From Gammaproteobacteria bacterium (GTDB lineage: Bacteria; Pseudomonadota; Gammaproteobacteria; UBA4575), in assembly GCA_965243395.1 (NCBI GenBank), contig CBDEUS010000002.1, positions 378,022 to 442,021 of the forward strand: a DNA stretch of 64,000 nucleotides, in the 5' to 3' direction. The stretch's first letter is position 1. The number at the start of each line of letters is the position of its first letter. The notes under the pieces are model-generated. The model saw only the letters and a program-made list of their open reading frames with translations, was not told the origin of the DNA and searched no databases. The position numbers and the translations under genes are program-made. Below are positions 1 to 16,685 of the stretch, one piece after another.

Positions 1-1308
1 CAACCTATAAATCTCCCCGTAGCCGAATTATTTACTAACCCAAGCCATTTGGTCATTACTAGCACTCCCTCAAAAGCAATTGTTGAAATTGCGGGTGAAG
101 AACAAGGGATAACACCATTTACTTTACGATTAAGCCCTAACATCGAACACAGCATTACTCTCAGCAAACCTGGGTTTAGATCAAATCAGCAAACCGTAAC
201 TTTAAAGCCGGGAGAACAACAGAATATTTCTGCTACTTTGGAAGCGATATTAGGCACGGTGGTTCTTAACATCGAACCACAAGATGCCGAAATTTTTATT
301 AACGGTAAATTTATGGGAAGTGGAAACGTAAAATTATCCTTACCTAGCGCAAGTCAACGCCTAGAAATAAGAAAGTCTGGCTATCAAGTTTTTGAAAGAA
401 TGATTTCTCCAGCAGCTGACTCTCCTCAAGTACTAGATGTAACTTTATCGCGCATCACTAGTACATCCGATATTAGTAAACCTAAGACTTTGCGTACTTC
501 CGAAGGACAAGAGCTAAAATTAATTTTTGGAGGTAAATTTTCTATGGGTGCTGCACGCCGTGAACAAGGACGGCGCTCTAATGAAACCTTACATACTGTA
601 GAATTAGTTAAACCGTTCTATGTCAGTGTGCATGAAATTACCAACCAGCAATATTTAGTCTTTAATAGTTCGCATAGCTCGGGTTCATATAAAGGTCATG
701 ATCTATCTACGGGAAAATTGCCAGTAGTAAATATTAGTTGGGAAGAGGCTGCACGTTACTGTAATTGGTTAAGCATTAAAGATGGGCTAGAACCCGTTTA
801 CCGTGAAAATAATGGTAAGTTAATTGCTAAAAATCCTATACCTTCTGGTTATCGTCTGCTTACGGAAAGCGAGTGGGAATGGGTTGCGCGGGTTAAAAGC
901 AATAATCAAGTATATCGATATGAATGGGGAAACAGTTTTCCTCCCGATAAAGTTACCGGGAATTATGCGGATCAATCTGCTAAAGATTTATTAGACCCCA
1001 TACTACCTGATTATCAGGACAGTTTTATTGTTGCAGCACCTGTAGGAAGTTTTGCCGCTAATCATTTCGGAATTTTTGATATGGGCGGTAATGTTGCAGA
1101 ATGGTGTCATGATTATCATAGTATCTACCCTAGTTTAAGTGATGAAATCTTCACGGACCCGGTTGGTCCAAATACAGGTGATAAGCATGTAATTCGTGGT
1201 GCATCATGGATGCGGGGGGATTTGAGCAGTACACGTTTAAGCTACCGTGATCGAGATAACACTAAACGCACTGATGTTGGCTTTCGAATTGCGAGATATA
1301 TAGACTAA
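1..1308 (+). CDS. PEGA-repeat + FGE-sulfatase (SUMF1/formylglycine-generating-enzyme-like) domain protein; 5' end lies outside the window
   Basis: Frame 1 is open from nt 1, with no stop before the TTG at 49, so the gene begins upstream. Two PEGA-like repeats (LVITSTPSKAIVEIAGEEQGITPFTL; VVLNIEPQDAEIFINGKFMGSG). FGE-sulfatase hallmarks follow (FSMGA, VVNISWEEAARYCNWLS, GYRLLTESEWEWVAR, DMGGNVAEWCHD, IRGASW, DVGFRIAR). Confidence 0.8.
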   Translation, partial: QPINLPVAELFTNPSHLVITSTPSKAIVEIAGEEQGITPFTLRLSPNIEHSITLSKPGFRSNQQTVTLKPGEQQNISATLEAILGTVVLNIEPQDAEIFINGKFMGSGNVKLSLPSASQRLEIRKSGYQVFERMISPAADSPQVLDVTLSRITSTSDISKPKTLRTSEGQELKLIFGGKFSMGAARREQGRRSNETLHTVELVKPFYVSVHEITNQQYLVFNSSHSSGSYKGHDLSTGKLPVVNISWEEAARYCNWLSIKDGLEPVYRENNGKLIAKNPIPSGYRLLTESEWEWVARVKSNNQVYRYEWGNSFPPDKVTGNYADQSAKDLLDPILPDYQDSFIVAAPVGSFAANHFGIFDMGGNVAEWCHDYHSIYPSLSDEIFTDPVGPNTGDKHVIRGASWMRGDLSSTRLSYRDRDNTKRTDVGFRIARYID

Positions 1309-1321
1309 GTGAGTAAACGTT

Positions 1322-1576
1322 ATGATGAATTTGTGTAAATTATTTATTTATATCGTTACTCTGCTTGCATTTACTTTCACGATAGTTAACGCAGAAGAAA
1401 ACGATGGGAATCAAGATGATCAAACTAAAGAAGAACAAGTAACTGAAACAGCTAACAAGGAAAAATCTGTTAAACAAAATGCTAATAAACGCAGTCAGGT
1501 AAAAACACTAGAAAAATTCATTCCTTCAGAAGAAGTCTCAGCGGATAAGCCTGTAGCATTTCCTGCTGATATCTAA
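1322..1576 (+). CDS. small secreted acidic/lysine-rich protein (84 aa), function unknown
   Basis: ATG start 13 nt after the upstream stop. N-terminal signal peptide (LFIYIVTLLAFTFTIVNA/EE). The mature part is low-complexity and rich in E, K, Q. Operon context supports it being real. Confidence 0.55.
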   Translation: MMNLCKLFIYIVTLLAFTFTIVNAEENDGNQDDQTKEEQVTETANKEKSVKQNANKRSQVKTLEKFIPSEEVSADKPVAFPADI

Positions 1577-1595
1577 TCATCATCAATAATAAAAT

Positions 1596-2393
1596 ATGAA
1601 AAAAAATTTTCCATTCGAGTTTATATATCAAATTTTTAGTTTGTTAATAATAATTATCATTGTCCACGCAGCGTATGTTGCTGTAATCCGGCCTAATGCA
1701 GAAGCTGAGCTTGAGCAACAAGCAGCACAAATTAATATTGATAAAGACTATGTGCCTAAACGATCTATTTATGTACTGATCCGTGACTATGAACAAGAAG
1801 CCTGCTTTATTCTAATGTTTTGGGCTTTATGTATTATGGCCTTCAAAAGTATGAACCTATTTCGCGAGCGCAGCTTATTAGACAAAGATTTGCTGCATGC
1901 AAAAGAAGGAATAAAGTTTTTACCTCAAGATACTCGAGAATTATCGAGGCAAATTCAAAATCTGCCTGAAGACGAACAAAAATATTTATTGCCCAGAGCA
2001 CTGAACGTTGCATTGCATCGCTTCAGTTCAACACAAAATATCCAGGATGTGTCTTCAGCAACCACTAATGTATGTGAGTCTGAATCAGAGCGCCTCGATT
2101 CTGAGCTTTCTATTATTCGATACATTACTTGGGCTATTCCATCAATAGGCTTTCTTGGCACTGTGCGAGGTATTGGTGATGCATTAGGCCAAGCCCATAA
2201 AGCAGTCGAAGGTGACATCGCTGGAGTTACAGAAAGCCTGGGTGTTGCATTTAATTCAACGCTTATTGCATTGTGTATCAGTATTGTACTGATGTTTATT
2301 GTGCATCAATTACAGCTTCTGCAAGAAAGGTTTATCTTAGATACACAGAACTATTGTAATAACAATTTAATTCGGCACTTACAGGTTAGTTAG
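1596..2393 (+). CDS. MotA/TolQ/ExbB-family proton-channel subunit (4 predicted TM helices, large loop between TM2 and TM3)
   Basis: C-terminal signature resembles MotA_ExbB: AIPSIGFLGTVRGIGDALGQA ... GVTESLGVAFNSTLIALCISIVLMFIVHQLQ. Two N-terminal hydrophobic helices, then a hydrophilic segment of about 90 aa. Confidence 0.8.
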   Translation: MKKNFPFEFIYQIFSLLIIIIIVHAAYVAVIRPNAEAELEQQAAQINIDKDYVPKRSIYVLIRDYEQEACFILMFWALCIMAFKSMNLFRERSLLDKDLLHAKEGIKFLPQDTRELSRQIQNLPEDEQKYLLPRALNVALHRFSSTQNIQDVSSATTNVCESESERLDSELSIIRYITWAIPSIGFLGTVRGIGDALGQAHKAVEGDIAGVTESLGVAFNSTLIALCISIVLMFIVHQLQLLQERFILDTQNYCNNNLIRHLQVS

Positions 2394-2402
2394 GTCGCTG
2401 AT

Positions 2403-3764
2403 GTGTTCACTATCAATCCCATTATCATTGAATGTTATGACAATGGAATACGCATCTGTGATGATGAGAAAATTCTTGCTGATAGCGCAAGCTTTGCATT
2501 AATTGAAACAAGTCGACACGTTACCGTAGGTCCTTCTGCTCAACAACAAGCTCATCTTCGTCCTCGTGAAGTCAGCACAACATTTTGGAGCGACTTATCA
2601 GCTAACAGCACTACTAAGCATGTTGTAAGTAATGCCGAGCTCGCACTTAATCATTTACATTATGTTTTACAGCAAGCCAATTGCTCGGATCAAGATGCCA
2701 TAGTTATCACTCCCGCAACATTTGATAAACATCACTTAGGTTTACTGCTTGGCATTTGTGAAAAACTGCCCATCAAAATTGTCGGTATCGTCTGCAACGC
2801 TACGCTTGCGATGCAAGGATTTATTGATGATTGCAAAGCTGTATATTTAGATTTATTACAACGAAAATTAGTCTTGACAGAACTTATTCATAGTAATTCT
2901 GGTGTCGAATTAAAAACACCCAGTCGAATTTTTGATTATGGCTTACAGGACTTTGTGCATAACATCGCAAAATTAATTGCTGACAAATTTGTTGCAGAAA
3001 CGCGCTTTGATCCTTTGCATATTGCAAAACATGAGCAACAACTTTTTGATAAATTGCCACTTTGGTTGAATATGTTAAAAAACACGGATAGCACTGAGTG
3101 CAATTTATCCACTGAGGACGAATCATTTTCCATAAATATAAGCCAACAACAACTGCAACAAGCTAATCACCAGCAATTTGATAAAATTGCAGCTTATCTT
3201 AATGTGCTTTTCCACAACCATGATGCGATAGCCATTTATTGTTCATCAAGTTGTCAGCAAGTATTTGGTATGCAAAATTTCTTTTCGAACTTGCCAGGTT
3301 GTGCAGTAATACAGCTTGAAGATGATTCTTTAGCTAAAAATGCTTTGCTTAATAAAGATGAAATTATAAGCAAGGAGCAGGTTTTATACGTAAATAGTTT
3401 ACCTTGGCATTCTAAATTTAAGCCCGACACTTTATCTTTTAATCCTGGGAAAATATCTAACCTTTCAAGTTTACCTACACATATCTTGATTGATGGTCAT
3501 GCATATGGCTTACAACAAGATATTTATATTGCGCATGACAGGTCTTCAAAATTGTTAATCACACTTGAACAGACATCTGAGAGCTTATGCAAAATTTCAT
3601 CTAATAACTTAAGTGTAGATGTTGAGATTTTAAATTCTATAAAAATACAAATGAATTCGATTTCAGTAGAAAATAATGTGCACGCAAAAATAGGCGACAC
3701 ATTAGCTGTTCAGGACTGTTTGACACATTGTCGGTTTATAAAAGTGGTAGAGCATGAAGCGTAG
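2403..3764 (+). CDS. Hsp70/actin-fold-like protein with degenerate nucleotide-binding motifs and a beta-rich (possibly FHA-like) C-terminal domain
   Basis: GTG start. The segment DAIVITPATFDKHHLGLLLGICEKLPIKIVGIVCNATLAM mirrors the Hsp70 stretch AVITVPAYFND..R.A...AG..GL.V.RIINEPTAAA. The phosphate-1 and phosphate-2 Gly loops are absent (IIIECYDNGIRI; VYLDLLQRKLVL). No signal peptide. The 3' end overlaps the next gene by 11 nt. Confidence 0.5.
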   Translation: MFTINPIIIECYDNGIRICDDEKILADSASFALIETSRHVTVGPSAQQQAHLRPREVSTTFWSDLSANSTTKHVVSNAELALNHLHYVLQQANCSDQDAIVITPATFDKHHLGLLLGICEKLPIKIVGIVCNATLAMQGFIDDCKAVYLDLLQRKLVLTELIHSNSGVELKTPSRIFDYGLQDFVHNIAKLIADKFVAETRFDPLHIAKHEQQLFDKLPLWLNMLKNTDSTECNLSTEDESFSINISQQQLQQANHQQFDKIAAYLNVLFHNHDAIAIYCSSSCQQVFGMQNFFSNLPGCAVIQLEDDSLAKNALLNKDEIISKEQVLYVNSLPWHSKFKPDTLSFNPGKISNLSSLPTHILIDGHAYGLQQDIYIAHDRSSKLLITLEQTSESLCKISSNNLSVDVEILNSIKIQMNSISVENNVHAKIGDTLAVQDCLTHCRFIKVVEHEA

Positions 3765-4842
3765 ATCCGTAAATGCTTTTAATTTAGCTTTTTTGGATGT
3801 CATGTTTTGTGGTTTTGGTGCTGTGATACTATTTTTTATGATCATTAATGCTAATACACATGAAAGAAGAGATAAAATAAATTACGAAGTCACAGGTGAA
3901 GTAAATAAACTAGATAAGGAGGTTATAGGCGCACAAAAATTTTTAGTGGAATTGAAAAATTCTTTACAAGAAACAAATGATGAGCTGATTCAAGCACAAG
4001 GTAAGTCACATGAAGTTATCGAAAATATTAAAAAGAATAAAGATCAGCTTGCAAAATTAGACAAAAACACATTAGCCAAGTTAGAAAGCATAGAAAAACT
4101 AAAGGCGGATTTAAAATCGATTGAAGAAGAGAATCAACGTCTTGAAGGTGGTGCAGAAAAGCTATTAGAAGGTGAGCGTCTAAGGCAATTTTCTGGTACA
4201 GGGCATCGTCAATACTTAACTGGACTAAAAATGGGAGGTGAACGAATATTGATTCTAGTGGACACTTCCGCCAGCATGCTAGCAGATCGAATTGTTAATG
4301 TTCTACGTTTTCGAAATTTGCCTCCTGATGAACGCGTACGCGCAGCCAAATGGCAACAGGTACTTTATACCGTAGATTGGATTACCACACGCATACCAAC
4401 TACAAGTAAATTTCAAATTTACAGTTTTAATGAAACGACTTCTGCAACATATGAAGTGGAAGGAGAGCAGTGGTTAGATGGAGGAAATATAAAACACCTC
4501 GACACTGCAGTACATAATTTATTTCAAATAGCACCTGAAAAAGGTACCAATCTTTATAAAGCATTTGAAAGTATTAACCAGTTCTCTCCTCCGCCTGACA
4601 ATATTTATTTGCTAACAGATGGCTTGCCTACAAAAGGTCCCTCGATAAGCTTTGGAAATAAAGTAAGCTCAAAACAGCGTAAAAAATTATATTCTAAAGC
4701 TATACAAGAACTACCAGGTGGCATCCCTGTAAATATCATTTTATTTCACATGGAGGGGGATCCGTTGGCTGCTAGTGAATTTTGGAAATTGGCGCAAAAT
4801 TCTAATGGTGCCTTCTTCAGTCCTGCAAGAGATTGGCCCTAA
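3754..4842 (+). CDS. ExbD/TolR/MotB-like Asp-containing TM anchor + coiled coil + vWA (MIDAS) domain protein, paralog 1
   Basis: The N-terminus MKRRSVNAFNLAFLDVMFCGFGAVILFFMI resembles the ExbD TM helix (FIDVMLVLLIIFMV), including the intramembrane Asp (D15). Residues ~45-150 are heptad-like and rich in E, K, L. The vWA domain has a DxSxS MIDAS motif (ILILVDTSASM) and a later LLTDGLPT motif. Confidence 0.75.
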   Translation: MKRRSVNAFNLAFLDVMFCGFGAVILFFMIINANTHERRDKINYEVTGEVNKLDKEVIGAQKFLVELKNSLQETNDELIQAQGKSHEVIENIKKNKDQLAKLDKNTLAKLESIEKLKADLKSIEEENQRLEGGAEKLLEGERLRQFSGTGHRQYLTGLKMGGERILILVDTSASMLADRIVNVLRFRNLPPDERVRAAKWQQVLYTVDWITTRIPTTSKFQIYSFNETTSATYEVEGEQWLDGGNIKHLDTAVHNLFQIAPEKGTNLYKAFESINQFSPPPDNIYLLTDGLPTKGPSISFGNKVSSKQRKKLYSKAIQELPGGIPVNIILFHMEGDPLAASEFWKLAQNSNGAFFSPARDWP

Positions 4843-4866
4843 GACATTGGTTTTGACATTATTACT

Positions 4867-5874
4867 ATGAAACGACGTCGAAATATTGAAATATTTAGTT
4901 TGTCTTTTTTAGACTGCGTTTGTTGCGGCTTTGGTGCACTGATCTTATTGCTAGTGTTATCCAAAACTGCGGAACCAGTAATTTTTGAAGAGTATTCGCT
5001 CGATCTAGAAAACATATTAGCCAAGTTACAAACCGAGCTGTTTGAAATTCGTGGTGAAACTCATATTTTAAATCGTGATTTAGTCACAAAAAAACAACAG
5101 CTTTCCGAAGAAGTTGAAAAAATTGCATTACTTCAAGCAGATTTATCTTCTATTCTTGGAAAATTCGCTGCTTCAAAAGATAGTTCAAATATACAAAACA
5201 AAATTGAACAGCAACTGGCAACTGCCAAACAAGACCTCACGGAAGAGATGCGTCGATTACAAGAACAACAAAGCAGGCCCAGAACAGAATTTGACGATAC
5301 AGTTGGAGGAATTCCGGTAGATAGCGAATACATTATTTTTATAATTGATACCTCAGGAAGTATGTTTAACCATGGCTGGGGTTCCGTTATACAAAAACTC
5401 TCTGAAGTTTTAGACATCTACCCCAAGGTTAAAGGTATTCAAGTAATGAATGATATGGGTGAATATATGTTCGCCCAATACACAGGAAAATGGATCCCAG
5501 ATACACCAGCAAGACGTAAAGCAATTATTAAACGCATGCGTAAATGGCAAGCTTTTAGTAATAGCAGTCCTGTTGAAGGTATCACAGCCGCGATTAATAC
5601 ATTCTATTCAAAAAATAAAAAAATCAGTTTATATGTGTTCGGTGATGAATTTACCGGTCCTTCGATTCAATCCGTGTTACACGAAGTGAGTCAACTTAAT
5701 CCTAAAAATACTAATGGTAAGCGTCGAGTTCGTATTCATGCAGTAGGGTTTCCGATTCAGTTCAGTCGCCCCGATAGTGAGCAGGGTACCGGAGTTAGAT
5801 TTGCCACTTTAATGCGAGCATTATGCGAGCAAAATGGCGGTACATTTGTAGGTCTAAATTCTCATTATCCCTGA
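4867..5874 (+). CDS. ExbD/TolR/MotB-like Asp-containing TM anchor + coiled coil + vWA (MIDAS) domain protein, paralog 2
   Basis: N-terminus MKRRRNIEIFSLSFLDCVCCGFGALILLLVL with intramembrane Asp (D16). Coiled-coil-like region ~45-140. vWA domain with DxSxS (IIFIIDTSGSM). Same architecture as the upstream gene. Confidence 0.75.
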   Translation: MKRRRNIEIFSLSFLDCVCCGFGALILLLVLSKTAEPVIFEEYSLDLENILAKLQTELFEIRGETHILNRDLVTKKQQLSEEVEKIALLQADLSSILGKFAASKDSSNIQNKIEQQLATAKQDLTEEMRRLQEQQSRPRTEFDDTVGGIPVDSEYIIFIIDTSGSMFNHGWGSVIQKLSEVLDIYPKVKGIQVMNDMGEYMFAQYTGKWIPDTPARRKAIIKRMRKWQAFSNSSPVEGITAAINTFYSKNKKISLYVFGDEFTGPSIQSVLHEVSQLNPKNTNGKRRVRIHAVGFPIQFSRPDSEQGTGVRFATLMRALCEQNGGTFVGLNSHYP

Positions 5875-6088: not shown

Positions 6089-6661
6089 ATGTCATTTCCT
6101 AATTCACATGCAACATTCAATTCAATTTATTTGCGGAGTTTATTCAAGTACACCTTAATTTTCATTGCCAGCAGCCTGCTGATTAGCGCCTGCAGCGGTG
6201 ATAAAGAAGATGTACCTGTTGAAAAAGAAGTAACTGAAACTGTTGTTCCGGAAAGCACAAAAGCTACTTCAAACGACATTGCTTCTGAAATTCAAGTGAA
6301 TAGAGAAAAATGGATGGCGCATGAAATTAGTAGTTACCAGATTGAGATGCAGAAAATCTGCTATTGCGTTCCTGAAGTTGTACGCATGATGGTGTTTGAA
6401 GTTGACGAAAATGAAGTGGTATCTGTGCGTTATGCAGACACTGGTGAAGATGTCGATCCACAACACTACGGTGACTTTAATACGATTGAAAGCATGTTTA
6501 CGTTTGTTGAAAAGGCCTTGGAAAAAGATCCAGCCGATCTGTCCATCGCATATCACGATAAGTATGGATACATAAAGGAAATGAGTGTGGATTTTAAAAA
6601 GAACATTGCTGACGATGAGATTTCAATTATCGCCTCAAATATGAGGCCAAAAGAAAATTAG
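6089..6661 (+). CDS. putative lipoprotein (190 aa) with a conserved CxC motif
   Basis: Strong RBS (AAAGGAG) 7 nt upstream of the ATG. Signal peptide with lipobox LLISA|C. CYC motif in QKICYCVPE. Ends 6 nt before the protease gene. Confidence 0.6.
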   Translation: MSFPNSHATFNSIYLRSLFKYTLIFIASSLLISACSGDKEDVPVEKEVTETVVPESTKATSNDIASEIQVNREKWMAHEISSYQIEMQKICYCVPEVVRMMVFEVDENEVVSVRYADTGEDVDPQHYGDFNTIESMFTFVEKALEKDPADLSIAYHDKYGYIKEMSVDFKKNIADDEISIIASNMRPKEN

Positions 6662-6667
6662 GTATTT

Positions 6668-8617
6668 ATGCGATTAGGAGTTGGAACACTAATCTTTTTA
6701 CTTTCGAGCTTAATTACAAACTTTGCATATGCAGCTCCTGAAGTAAACGATTTAACCATCAATGTAGATGGTATCGATTATGCTATTGAACTTAAAAAAA
6801 GTTCTTTCGCAAAGCGTATACAGGTCAATCTAGATACTGAAAGTGACGAAAACCAACCGAGTATAGAACTCTACCAAGGCGATGTGCCAGAAGTACCTGA
6901 TAGTTGGGTAGCCGCTTCCTACTATGATGGTGAATGGCAAGGACTTGCATCCATTCACGATAAATTATACGAGCTAAAAGGTTTTGGAATGTCGGGAACA
7001 GCGCTTGCCGTTCTTGATGGTGATGAATCTGTTTCCATGCAAGCAGATGAACTTGATCTCTCTGGTGATTTTGATATTCATACAATGTGCGCGATGCCAC
7101 ATGCTTATAACGATGCGGCGGCTAGCACTTTAGCTTCTATTCTTCCTAACGCTAACGCGGTTAACAATAATGGCACAGGACAAGGTAATGTAGCTTTTGC
7201 CGTAGGCGCTATTACACAAGCCGTCAACGTAGTGTTAGCACTCGATCAATTTCACACGGCACAGTATGCAGATTCTGTACAACGCGCCATGCGTATTATC
7301 AATAATGTTGATGCTATTTATCGTAATAGCTTGGGTATCGCTATTAATAACACTGCGATACTAAGCTTTGATAACAACAATCCATTATTTGCTGGTATAA
7401 CCGACGCGGAAGTTATTTTAGACCAAGCTATTCTTAATCAAGGCAATGTATTTGGAAATAATCCACGCACACTAGGTGCACTGCTCACTGCGAGAGATAT
7501 ACAAGTACCTTTGATAGGTAACGGCGTTGCAGGCATTGCACCTTTAAATGCCACATGTACTATCATCAATGGATTCGATATTGCGGTGAGTGTAAATGAA
7601 GATCGTGCATCTGAAGGTGTAGCATCTGTCATATTGGCGCATGAAATGGGCCATAACTTTGGCGCCGAACATGATGGCCCTCCTAACAATGCGGCATGCC
7701 CCGTCAGCACTTTTATTATGTCGCCGGTGGTAGCAAATGGGCTAAATGCATTTTCACAATGTTCGAGAGATGAGATCAATGCACATATTGCAAATGGAAC
7801 TTGTTATAAAGAACCTATCGATATTGCTTTAGCTCGCTTTGGAGCACCACCACCTGATAACTTGGCTCAGTTACAAGAAATTACACGTCAAATATCCATA
7901 TCAAATAACGGTACTGTGGCTGTCGCCAATGTGCAAATTGATGGGGATATCGACAATGTAGCCCTTGCCAGATTTACCGAAGTTACCGTAAATGGTGCAG
8001 CGTGCACTTTGTTAGCTGCAGGCAAATCCTATCAATGCAACCTTGCTTCGATTGCTGCAGCCACGCAACAAATTATCAACGAAAAAGTTCAGGTAGTTGG
8101 GTTAGGCACATTTAATTTCAGTGCAAACTTTGATAGCTCGGATGTCACGCAACGCATCGATATCGTTACTAACAATCAATTTGTTACCGATAGTCGTACC
8201 GCGAACCAAGCAGCCGTAGCGCCTGTTGCACCTTCTGGTTTAAGTGCCAGCGCACAAAATACAGGTGACATTGCATTAACATGGGCTGACAATAGTAACA
8301 ACGAACTAAATTTCCAAGTACAACGTTCGACTGGGGGCGGCGCATTTGCAGTTATTGCAAATCTAGCCGCAAACGCAACATCCTATACTGACAGTAATAG
8401 CAACTTAACAGTGGGTACAGCTTACACCTATCAAGTAATTGCCACGAATGCGATAGGCAGTTCGCCTTCAAATCAATCCACTGCAACAGCATTAGAACCT
8501 ACTGTAGCGGCAAGCCCTGCACCTTCATCAGATGACAGTGGTGGTGGCGGCGGCGGTGCCATCTATTTATTTTCAGCAATTCTGTTACTTGCAAGATTAG
8601 TGCGACTCGCTCGTTAA
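6668..8617 (+). CDS. secreted zinc metalloprotease (metzincin, reprolysin/M12B-like) with FN3-like domain and GlyGly-CTERM-type sorting tail
   Basis: Signal peptide (FLLSSLITNFAYA/AP). Extended zinc motif HEMGHNFGAEHD (HExxHxxGxxHD) at nt 7640-7675. FN3-like segment (APSGLSASAQNTGDIALTWADNSNNELNFQVQRS...YTYQVIATN). C-terminus SSDDSGGGGGGAIYLFSAILLLARLVRLAR. Confidence 0.8.
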   Translation: MRLGVGTLIFLLSSLITNFAYAAPEVNDLTINVDGIDYAIELKKSSFAKRIQVNLDTESDENQPSIELYQGDVPEVPDSWVAASYYDGEWQGLASIHDKLYELKGFGMSGTALAVLDGDESVSMQADELDLSGDFDIHTMCAMPHAYNDAAASTLASILPNANAVNNNGTGQGNVAFAVGAITQAVNVVLALDQFHTAQYADSVQRAMRIINNVDAIYRNSLGIAINNTAILSFDNNNPLFAGITDAEVILDQAILNQGNVFGNNPRTLGALLTARDIQVPLIGNGVAGIAPLNATCTIINGFDIAVSVNEDRASEGVASVILAHEMGHNFGAEHDGPPNNAACPVSTFIMSPVVANGLNAFSQCSRDEINAHIANGTCYKEPIDIALARFGAPPPDNLAQLQEITRQISISNNGTVAVANVQIDGDIDNVALARFTEVTVNGAACTLLAAGKSYQCNLASIAAATQQIINEKVQVVGLGTFNFSANFDSSDVTQRIDIVTNNQFVTDSRTANQAAVAPVAPSGLSASAQNTGDIALTWADNSNNELNFQVQRSTGGGAFAVIANLAANATSYTDSNSNLTVGTAYTYQVIATNAIGSSPSNQSTATALEPTVAASPAPSSDDSGGGGGGAIYLFSAILLLARLVRLAR

Positions 8618-13758: not shown

Positions 13759-15975
<2,217 letters not shown>

Positions 15976-16685
15976 TTAAAATTTCATTGGATGTAATAAT
16001 ACGTACCCCTCTATCATTTATAAATTATATTATTTATATTGTAATAATCGAATATTTCAATCATATAGACTACTGAACAGTTTGCACTTTATTATGCACA
16101 CACTACGCACTATAGGTGTTTCAATTCGGCTACACCTAAGCGTTAAGAAATGACTTTAGAAAGCTAATAAAATACTAGCTAGAGTAAGTTTGAATTTAAT
16201 TGCAGGAAGTGCGGTTAATTTAAGTTAGGAAGCAAGGGAATAGCGTTCAGACTTAGAGAAAGTGGGAGTTGTTGGAGAGAGAGGTTCACTATCTGGCAAT
16301 TCCGCTGTCCTAGAATCCTTGCTTCCTTAGACCGGTAATTTTGCGCCCCTAGCTTTCACTAGGTTTGCCCTTTTCAGTAGTAAAATTACTCCTCAGTAAT
16401 CAACTAACAAATACAGTGTAGTAACTATCTCAGTAAAATTAGTTGAGCCTTCTCACAGTTTTTCTCAACTACCGCTCATCTCAACGGTTAAAAATTCATT
16501 TTTAATCAGAGCCTTATATGCATTCACGAATGAGTGGTGCAATATGCCCGATGAAAATAAATTGTATAACTGTAGTTTTTAACCATCTGAAAATTAGATT
16601 GCTATCATGAAAACAATCAAATTTACTTGTGGATATCAAAGCTGCAAAATTTGTGAATAATTTAATTTACATTGTGGCGGGAACA

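Follow-up and report, generated by a model that had tools for sequence, protein, structure and literature searches.

A conserved nine-gene cluster joining a MotA/TolQ/ExbB-type channel subunit to paired vWA-headed proteins: a candidate proton-motive-force-driven envelope system

The 5' end of a 64,000-nucleotide (nt) stretch of gammaproteobacterial DNA (contig CBDEUS010000002.1, positions 378,022 to 442,021; hereafter the window, in whose own numbering coordinates are given) carries six co-directional forward-strand genes at positions 1-5874, here denoted g1 to g6, which combine a MotA/TolQ/ExbB-type channel subunit with two membrane-anchored proteins headed by domains of the von Willebrand factor A (vWA) type. 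The initial annotation of this region, made from the sequence alone, had described a tightly packed six-gene operon. The open reading frames (ORFs) called here have the same coordinates, with successive spacings of 13, 19 and 9 nt, an 11-nt overlap between g4 and g5, and 24 nt between g5 and g6; the next ORF starts at position 6089, leaving a 214-nt gap behind g6 in which neither a promoter-like nor a terminator-like site was found. The six genes thus stand as described, but the size of the unit does not: relatives of the cluster comprise nine colinear genes, and the edge of the window cuts through the cluster, removing ~370 N-terminal residues of g1 and hiding three conserved upstream genes (u1, u2 and u3). 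The GC content of the cluster is 0.37, compared with 0.40 for the whole window.

The channel subunit is encoded by g3 (1596-2393, +; 265 amino acids [aa]), which matches the MotA_ExbB family (PF01618) with an E-value of 1.1e-14 and a score of 54.8 bits, the cutoff being 22.9. It passes this family threshold but falls far short of the TolQ, ExbB and MotA equivalog cutoffs in NCBIfam, and therefore appears to represent a separate subfamily. Three strongly hydrophobic segments and an amphipathic pore helix suggest a MotA-like topology with four transmembrane (TM) helices, including an extra N-terminal TM helix relative to TolQ and ExbB. Two of its residues, T189 and T222, correspond in the alignment to T145 and T178, the threonines lining the pore of Escherichia coli TolQ, and are invariant in five lineages. 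In PADLOC, g3 yields a partial match (93 aa, 1.2e-4) to ZorA2. These features are consistent with g3 being the A subunit of a putative 5:2 motor.

The genes g5 (3754-4842, +; 362 aa) and g6 (4867-5874, +; 335 aa) encode putative B-type subunits 1 and 2, respectively. Both proteins start with a short, conserved basic N-terminal tail, followed by a TM helix of the form FLD(V/C)..CGFGA (FLDVMFCGFGAVILFF in g5 and FLDCVCCGFGALILLL in g6), with no S-H-L-S motif in either. Within this helix, D15 of g5 and D16 of g6 align with D23 of TolR and are present without exception in the eight sequences compared, which represent four lineages. Neither protein matched PF02472, MotB or OmpA in Pfam or NCBIfam, the periplasmic part consisting instead of a coiled coil and a vWA domain. 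In g5, which was assigned through a VWA_2 match and its paralogy with g6, the cytoplasmic tail and the D15-bearing helix are followed by a coiled coil of ~110 residues, a periplasmic vWA domain and an invariant C-terminal ...RDWP; the residues of its metal ion-dependent adhesion site (MIDAS), namely, D170-x-S172-x-S174, G264-T265 and D289, are invariant in seven lineages, and PF13519 or PF00092 is present in many g5 homologues. The MIDAS of g6 comprises D161-T-S163-G-S165 and D260, with the DxSxS motif and the distal Asp being invariant. The AlphaFold2 (AF2) model of g6 consists of a continuous helix spanning residues 14-135 and a C-terminal alpha/beta domain, modeled mostly at a predicted local distance difference test (pLDDT) score of ~80-90, for which Foldseek retrieved vWA folds, such as those of ITIH1, integrin I domains and vWF A3 (1.7e-6 to 1e-4), with 78 vWA folds matched at E<=1e-3. 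The two proteins are paralogous, as indicated by an hhalign comparison (99.2% over 258 columns) that extends from the TM helix through the coiled coil into the vWA core, and share 26% identity across the N-terminal half. Homologues fall into more than 4107 clusters for g5 and at least 8000 for g6 (90% identity). Each of the two proteins has a helix like that of TolR, Asp included and invariant, the pore threonines are kept in g3, and no alternative B-type gene was identified in any locus examined; the proposal of the initial annotation that two vWA proteins fill the B-subunit role is therefore well founded.

Upstream of these genes, the 3' part of g1 (up to position 1308, +) is contained in an ORF that is open at the start of the window and covers 435 of ~805 codons; it encodes a pair of PEGA domains (4e-23) along with an FGE-sulfatase domain (PF03781; 2e-41), named after the formylglycine-generating enzymes (FGEs). 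The full-length form could be read from the closest relative, an uncultured gammaproteobacterial metagenome-assembled genome (MAG; locus L004, 83% identical to the window in g4). This relative (L004:6477-8894) is an 805-aa protein with a cytoplasmic N-terminal domain of ~110 aa, one TM segment (residues 146-179), five PEGA domains (2.7e-54) and an FGE-like head. The N-terminal domain shows weak matches to Yop-YscD_cpl (0.002) and to the forkhead-associated (FHA) domain (0.025) in three of seven sequences. Judged by its internal TM helix and the absence of a lipobox, g1 is predicted to be a bitopic inner-membrane protein. Comparison with the FGE of Streptomyces coelicolor (2q17, 6muj) aligns the ...YLCHDSYC... 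segment of the enzyme with ...WMRGDLSS... in g1, that is, the catalytic Cys residues are replaced by Arg and Ser. With both of these residues substituted, the g1 head cannot be a formylglycine-generating enzyme, although it shares the common fold of this family. Its best-scoring relatives in the Protein Data Bank (PDB) are TvpA (3e-19), FGEs (~1e-17) and PorK/GldK (5e-15), and the best NCBIfam match of the domain is GldK/PorK (1e-29), at 104 bits far under the 350-bit cutoff. Given the loss of the catalytic Cys pair and the presence of the ligand-binding TvpA and the structural PorK among the closest solved relatives, the g1 head is a non-catalytic, C-type-lectin-fold domain that is likely involved in binding rather than catalysis.

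The 453-aa product of g4 (2403-3764, +) is a cytoplasmic protein for which neither Pfam nor NCBIfam provided a match. Its AF2 model (pLDDT 89) combines a divergent actin-like fold of the Hsp70 nucleotide-binding domain (NBD) type, covering residues 1 to ~340, with an FHA-type beta-sandwich at residues ~355-450. Foldseek matched the model to Ssb, DnaK and Hsp110 at 1e-17 to 1e-14, with NBD-only matches reaching a root mean square deviation of ~4 Å, and PF00012 was detected neither in g4 nor in 81 relatives. By inspection, g4 has no Gly-rich Hsp70 phosphate loops, D-L-L-Q-R-K replacing the DLGGGT-type loop, while D13, D131 and D150 are conserved. Thus, g4 shares the NBD fold with the Hsp70 chaperones but differs from them in its phosphate loops and in its C-terminus, which is of the FHA type rather than a substrate-binding domain. 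The Pfam FHA profile is matched in 54 of the 81 family representatives (best 1.3e-14), and the family consensus, GxSRxHC...GTxxNG...GD, keeps the phosphothreonine-binding S-R-x-H and N-G elements. In the window clade, a 4-residue deletion removes the S-R-x-H loop and no Pfam FHA match is obtained, with N418 and D432 retained. The C-terminal domain of g4 is thus best interpreted as an FHA domain that would be canonical in most relatives and degenerate in the window lineage. By profile search, the g4 family encompasses 2195 clusters (50% identity) at E<=1e-3, of which 1169 are matched at <=1e-30.

The remaining gene, g2 (1322-1576, +), encodes an 84-aa secreted protein with a hydrophobic, signal-peptide-like segment at residues 1-25, a variable acidic linker and, at the C-terminal end, a 19-aa motif, F-x-P-S/T-E-x-I/V-x-x-D/E-x-x-V-x-F-P-x-D-I, that is invariant across phyla. 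Its position is occupied by an ORF of 78-115 aa in eight lineages, in which F66, P68, E70, V78, F80, P81, D83 and I84 are invariant. Apart from a weak PADLOC match to ZorB1 (0.005), g2 matched no family in Pfam, NCBIfam or PADLOC.

The three genes hidden by the window edge were identified in L004, where they are located immediately 5' of g1 in the same orientation. The first of these, u1 (L004:2788-3642), encodes a lipoprotein with a low-complexity, Gly/Ser/Glu-rich tether of highly variable length (263-419 aa for the homologous proteins) and a C-terminal module of ~35 aa, ...DDDIVARQLREAA..E.DPELREKLWEEYR.YK, that is invariant across phyla. The residue at position +2 after the lipobox Cys is Ser, and, assuming that the E. 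coli sorting rule applies, u1 appears to be built like a tethered outer-membrane lipoprotein; we take this architecture to be reminiscent of outer-membrane lipoprotein regulators, such as LpoB. The u2 product is a well conserved lipoprotein of 393 aa that yielded at most coiled-coil matches in a PDB sequence-profile search, and u3 encodes a TM protein with tetratricopeptide repeats (TPRs). In three distant lineages, u3 additionally carries an N-terminal Hanks-type Ser/Thr kinase domain (L002:4249-6507, L022:3058-5043 and L027:4520-6601), which is absent in the window clade and in L021, L025 and L026. Strict co-loss of the kinase and the phosphothreonine loop of the FHA domain was considered and rejected, L021 and L027 being counter-examples.

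The genes u1-u2-u3-g1-g2-g3-g4-g5-g6 are colinear in every locus with a long enough contig (tblastn, 20 loci). This order is found in Gammaproteobacteria/Thiotrichales MAGs, in Steroidobacteraceae (L002 and L003) and in a Brocadiaceae MAG (L021), as well as in the distant lineages L022, L025, L026 and L027, where g4 identity drops to 23-30%. Given that the same gene order recurs in all fetched loci of sufficient length, and at such low g4 identity, the arrangement is not due to chance. A scan of species-representative genomes recovered 17 loci with g4 relatives, and all of these, along with every further fetched locus, are metagenome-assembled or environmental contigs. The best conserved gene among the close relatives is g3, and the least conserved are g4, g2 and u1; identity to L004 amounts to 84-92% for g3 (97% for the window), 75-92% for g6 (96% for the window) and 67-86% for g5. 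The flanking LysR, glmS, glmU and atpC genes are common to the window and L001, for which g4 identity is only 38%, and searches of plasmid and phage collections produced no match to the cluster. In the distant clusters of L002 (13439-14284), L025 (13288-14705) and L026 (13365-14641), a further gene or two in the same orientation (204-281 aa and 221 aa) directly follow the second vWA gene; they have no Pfam match, are absent from the window clade and may encode additional components. An apparent g5-g6 fusion of 702 aa in L027 (11376-13484) was rejected, since the frame is lost within the first vWA domain before translation runs on into the second gene, pointing to a frameshift caused by an assembly error or pseudogenization. 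The same locus, and no other, contains Type I-F CRISPR genes (Cas_Csy4, Cas_Csy3; L027:19926-21383) ~6.5 kb downstream of the cluster, which is probably coincidental.

All six motif-based domain assignments of the initial annotation hold when assessed with Pfam, AF2/Foldseek, hhalign and TolQ/TolR alignments. At the level of individual profiles, PF01618, PEGA and PF03781 were recovered, whereas PF00012 and PF02472 gave no match and the VWA_2 match of g5 remained under its cutoff. The absence of the usual partners of such motors was likewise confirmed, with Pfam, NCBIfam and PADLOC scans detecting no ExbD/TolR/MotB-, TonB/TolA-, Pal/OmpA- or ZorC/D-type genes in or adjoining the cluster. What had been missed is that the FGE domain is non-catalytic and that FHA domains, lipoproteins and a link to a kinase belong to the picture. 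In PADLOC and NCBIfam scans, the cluster corresponds to no named system.

The view that this combination cannot be placed in any characterized context has to be revised. Williams-Jones et al. (Mol Biol Evol 2025; PMC12204202, section 8, Fig. 4c-d) reported tolQ homologues tightly linked to pairs of heterologous, TM-tethered vWA proteins, denoted TPH-vWA ('trans-pore-helix vWA'). The TPH-vWA clusters contain no tolR, exbD or motB, the SHLS motif is absent, and the trans-pore helix carries a conserved Asp that faces a ring of Thr residues in an AlphaFold3 5:2 model; the clusters are found mainly in Proteobacteria and Verrucomicrobia and have no known function (PMC12204202). The cluster described here agrees in all of these respects, including the TolQ homologue with a vWA pair, the Asp-bearing helix, the lack of SHLS and of tolR, exbD and motB, and the proteobacterial host. 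Hence, the idea of a motor with vWA proteins as B subunits is not new but already published as a prediction (PMC12204202). That prediction covers only the motor and vWA genes, whereas g1, g2, g4, the two lipoproteins and the TPR/kinase protein are not described there, and our literature searches found no description of the extended nine-gene system or of its link to phospho-signaling. The set composed of the Hsp70-fold/FHA protein, the kinase, the FGE-like protein and the lipoproteins thus constitutes the unreported part of the system.

Taken together, these observations make it probable that the cluster encodes a conserved nine-gene envelope-spanning apparatus in which the proton motive force (PMF) would energize either a mechanical coupling to the outer envelope or its probing, and the label of a candidate PMF-driven envelope system given by the initial annotation can be retained at the level of a sequence-based prediction. 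The analysis establishes which domains are present, that the Asp, Thr and MIDAS residues are conserved, and that the genes keep their order across relatives; the 5:2 assembly, the binding partners and the biological output are inferred, as follows. The engine, which is the best-supported part of the proposed mechanism, would consist of a g3 pentamer arranged around the pair of N-terminal helices that a g5/g6 heterodimer contributes. Proton flow through a site formed by the Asp (g5 D15 and g6 D16) and Thr (g3 T189 and T222) residues would turn or pull the coiled-coil stalk. The stalk, with ~100 helical residues past the membrane, would carry the two MIDAS-bearing vWA heads ~15 nm into the periplasm, where they could engage partners encoded by the cluster itself. 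The likeliest of these is the non-catalytic FGE-like head of g1, displayed on five PEGA domains, with the invariant acidic C-terminal peptide of g2 and the C-terminal module of u1 being other candidates. In the cytoplasm, g4, with its Hsp70 fold and FHA domain, might join the FHA-like N-terminus of g1 in a regulatory or clutch module, which in many lineages would be wired to the Hanks-type Ser/Thr kinase fused to u3; in the window lineage, there is no kinase and the FHA domain of g4 has no phosphothreonine-binding loop. The roles proposed for g1, u1, g2, the C-terminus of g5 and the cytoplasmic layer are suggested by topology and conservation. Functionally, the apparatus would thus resemble a force transducer of the Tol-Pal/TonB type, supplemented with a module similar to the threonine-phosphorylation pathway of the T6SS (type VI secretion system), rather than a phage defense device.

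The likeness to TolQ-TolR-TolA and ExbB-ExbD-TonB resides in the PF01618-family A subunit with pore threonines, the Asp in the helix of the B subunit and an element that spans the periplasm toward the outer membrane. In contrast to the Tol and Ton systems, however, the cluster encodes neither the ExbD/TolR periplasmic domain nor TolA or TonB, and the stalk and head are part of the B-type subunit itself, which is present as two paralogues. Many of the other components find counterparts in the TagQRST-PpkA-Fha1-PppA pathway, which acts as a sensor of the envelope state and similarly includes a periplasmic vWA domain, an FGE-family protein, an outer-membrane lipoprotein, a Hanks-type kinase and an FHA protein. 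The family COG1262, which is relevant to this comparison, we take to be the FGE/SUMF1 family. In the H1-T6SS of Pseudomonas aeruginosa, the vWA domain of the PpkA kinase is periplasmic, and the C-terminal domain of PpkA is bound by TagR (PMC3224232); TagR, which acts together with the outer-membrane lipoprotein TagQ, belongs to COG1262 (PMC13584744), and the pathway switches the FHA protein in response to envelope damage (PMC3224232, PMC13584744). We did not find TagR tied to the term 'sulfatase' in the open literature, so the connection between TagR and FGE relies on the COG1262 label and on COG1262 being taken as the FGE/SUMF1 family. The two arrangements also differ, in that the cluster has a proton channel but no linked T6SS genes, PP2C phosphatase or ABC transporter (neither T6SS nor PP2C genes were identified in any locus examined), and the kinase is fused to the TPR protein u3 rather than to the vWA domain, with the window lineage having no kinase and a degenerate FHA domain. 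Because of the analogies with the H1-T6SS pathway and with the type IX secretion system (T9SS) considered below, we favor a function in which the PMF powers either coupling to the outer envelope or its probing, with a phospho-regulated clutch.

The same components could be read in a different manner. The T9SS has a 5:2 motor that acts against PorK, an FGE-fold lipoprotein arranged in rings, and a machine resembling the T9SS/gliding core, in which the motor would move a periplasmic rod against the FGE-like assembly and thereby export or move an adhesin, would provide for surface motility, secretion or adhesion. The parallel with PorK/GldK-PorL/GldL-PorM/GldM, namely, an ion-driven motor, a non-catalytic FGE-fold protein and a rod-like periplasmic B subunit, is strengthened by the GldK/PorK matches of g1, both in NCBIfam and among solved chains, and by the combination of motor, long periplasmic stalk and lipoproteins in one cluster; furthermore, vWA domains are classic adhesins, for instance, in CglB of the Myxococcus gliding machinery (PMC9946355). 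Nevertheless, we regard this possibility as unlikely: GldL/M/N and PorL/M/N are not matched, the GldK score of g1 is less than a third of the family cutoff (104 versus 350 bits), and g1 is predicted to be a bitopic inner-membrane protein with PEGA repeats and a cytoplasmic FHA-like domain, not a lipoprotein. Moreover, no translocon, outer-membrane barrel or cargo bearing a sorting domain is conserved in the loci examined, and the vWA domains have an inner-membrane anchor. It is also conceivable, though quite improbable, that g4, g5 and g6 form a static alignment scaffold of the PilM-PilN-PilO kind, with the actin-fold g4 clamping the tails of g5 and g6 and the vWA proteins not being the ion-conducting partners of g3. 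In pilMNO, an actin-fold gene precedes two paralogous bitopic genes, and the same order, coupled with the 11-nt g4/g5 overlap, the actin/Hsp70 fold of g4 with its degenerate phosphate loops and the conserved basic N-terminal tails of g5 and g6, fits such a scaffold. A static role is, however, hard to reconcile with the invariance, in all sequences, of the intramembrane Asp at the position of TolR D23, with the lack of any other candidate B subunit for g3 in any lineage and with g3, g5 and g6 being the most strongly co-conserved genes of the cluster; besides, the top Foldseek matches of g4 are Hsp70s, not PilM or FtsA. The scaffold and the motor need not exclude each other, as the tails bound by g4 could belong to a dimer that rotates.

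The initial annotation had listed defense among the potential functions, and a Zorya-type system, in which a MotAB-like complex senses phage-induced perturbation of the envelope and triggers a response, would indeed employ a MotAB-family channel outside of flagellar rotation, as hinted by the weak PADLOC matches of g3 to ZorA2 (1.2e-4) and of g2 to ZorB1 (0.005). In addition, FGE-like, vWA, FHA and Hsp70 domains recur in biological conflict systems, as documented by Kaur et al. (2020; PMC7159879), although MotA and TolQ are not mentioned there. However, PADLOC called no defense system, and no nuclease, ZorC/D/E or other effector was found; g3, at 265 aa, does not have the long tail of ZorA, and there is no peptidoglycan-binding ZorB. 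The setting is not a defense island but a fixed housekeeping locus with flanks shared across deep divergence, the motor genes are strongly conserved (75-97%), and the cluster was not matched in the plasmid and phage collections. These observations speak against defense, which we consider very improbable.

Several points weigh against the envelope-spanning motor as well. The motor is predicted here from gene sequences and single-chain structure models, and the kinship with the TPH-vWA family, whose seed is from Idiomarina loihiensis, is deduced from matching features. For g5, the VWA_2 match (6e-5), although extending over the whole profile, lies under the curated cutoff, and PDB sequence-profile searches with g5 and g6 retrieved coiled-coil matches only, with no vWA domain, so that the vWA assignment of g6 is a structural one. 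In the g6 model, pLDDT values are mostly ~35-70 over the first 150 residues, making the length of the stalk approximate. No outer-membrane barrel or known peptidoglycan-binding domain that could serve as a distal anchor is encoded in the cluster. Finally, the correspondence between kinase and FHA domain is imperfect, with L021 encoding an FHA domain but no kinase and L027 a kinase along with a degenerate FHA domain.

Motors of the MotA/ExbB family power flagella, TonB-dependent uptake, Tol-Pal, gliding, the T9SS and Zorya, and each new coupling of these motors has revealed a new process of the cell envelope. In the proposed apparatus, the B subunit itself would bear the stalk and the adhesive MIDAS head and be accompanied by seven or eight fixed partners, including a phospho-signaling module. 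It is possible, if doubtful, that the apparatus represents a new class of machine, in which a vWA-headed heterodimer, as the rotor or plunger of a 5:2 proton motor, actively pulls on partners in the outer envelope, namely, the g1 head, a long-tethered lipoprotein and a secreted peptide, and relays the mechanical outcome to the cytoplasm by way of an adaptor with Hsp70 fold and FHA domain and of a Ser/Thr kinase. If so, the machine would draw on the PMF for mechanosensing at the outer membrane or for its maintenance, independently of Tol-Pal and Ton, and would be widespread among environmental diderms. The family is large and spread across several phyla, and the conserved Asp, Thr and MIDAS residues, together with the C-terminal motifs of g2, u1 and g5, represent concrete targets.

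Other features of the window lie outside of the cluster. The 214-nt gap behind g6 is followed by a gene for a DUF6174 lipoprotein-like protein (6089-6661, +) and by a gene for a reprolysin-type metalloprotease of 649 aa that contains an fn3 domain (6668-8617, +). Both were considered as members of the system and rejected, because they are located downstream of the cluster in the close clade only. At the C-terminus of the protease, a run of Gly residues precedes a hydrophobic stretch and a tail of Arg (...SGGGGGGAIYLFSAILLLARLVRLAR), resembling a sorting signal of the GlyGly-CTERM/rhombosortase type. Further downstream, a c-di-GMP-I riboswitch aptamer was identified on the reverse strand (16292-16379, -; Rfam RF01051, 80.8 bits, E 2.6e-14), ~340 nt upstream of an ORF for a 731-aa KatG-type peroxidase (13759-15954, -; Pfam peroxidase, 9e-70), a pairing that would be unusual if the riboswitch controls that gene.

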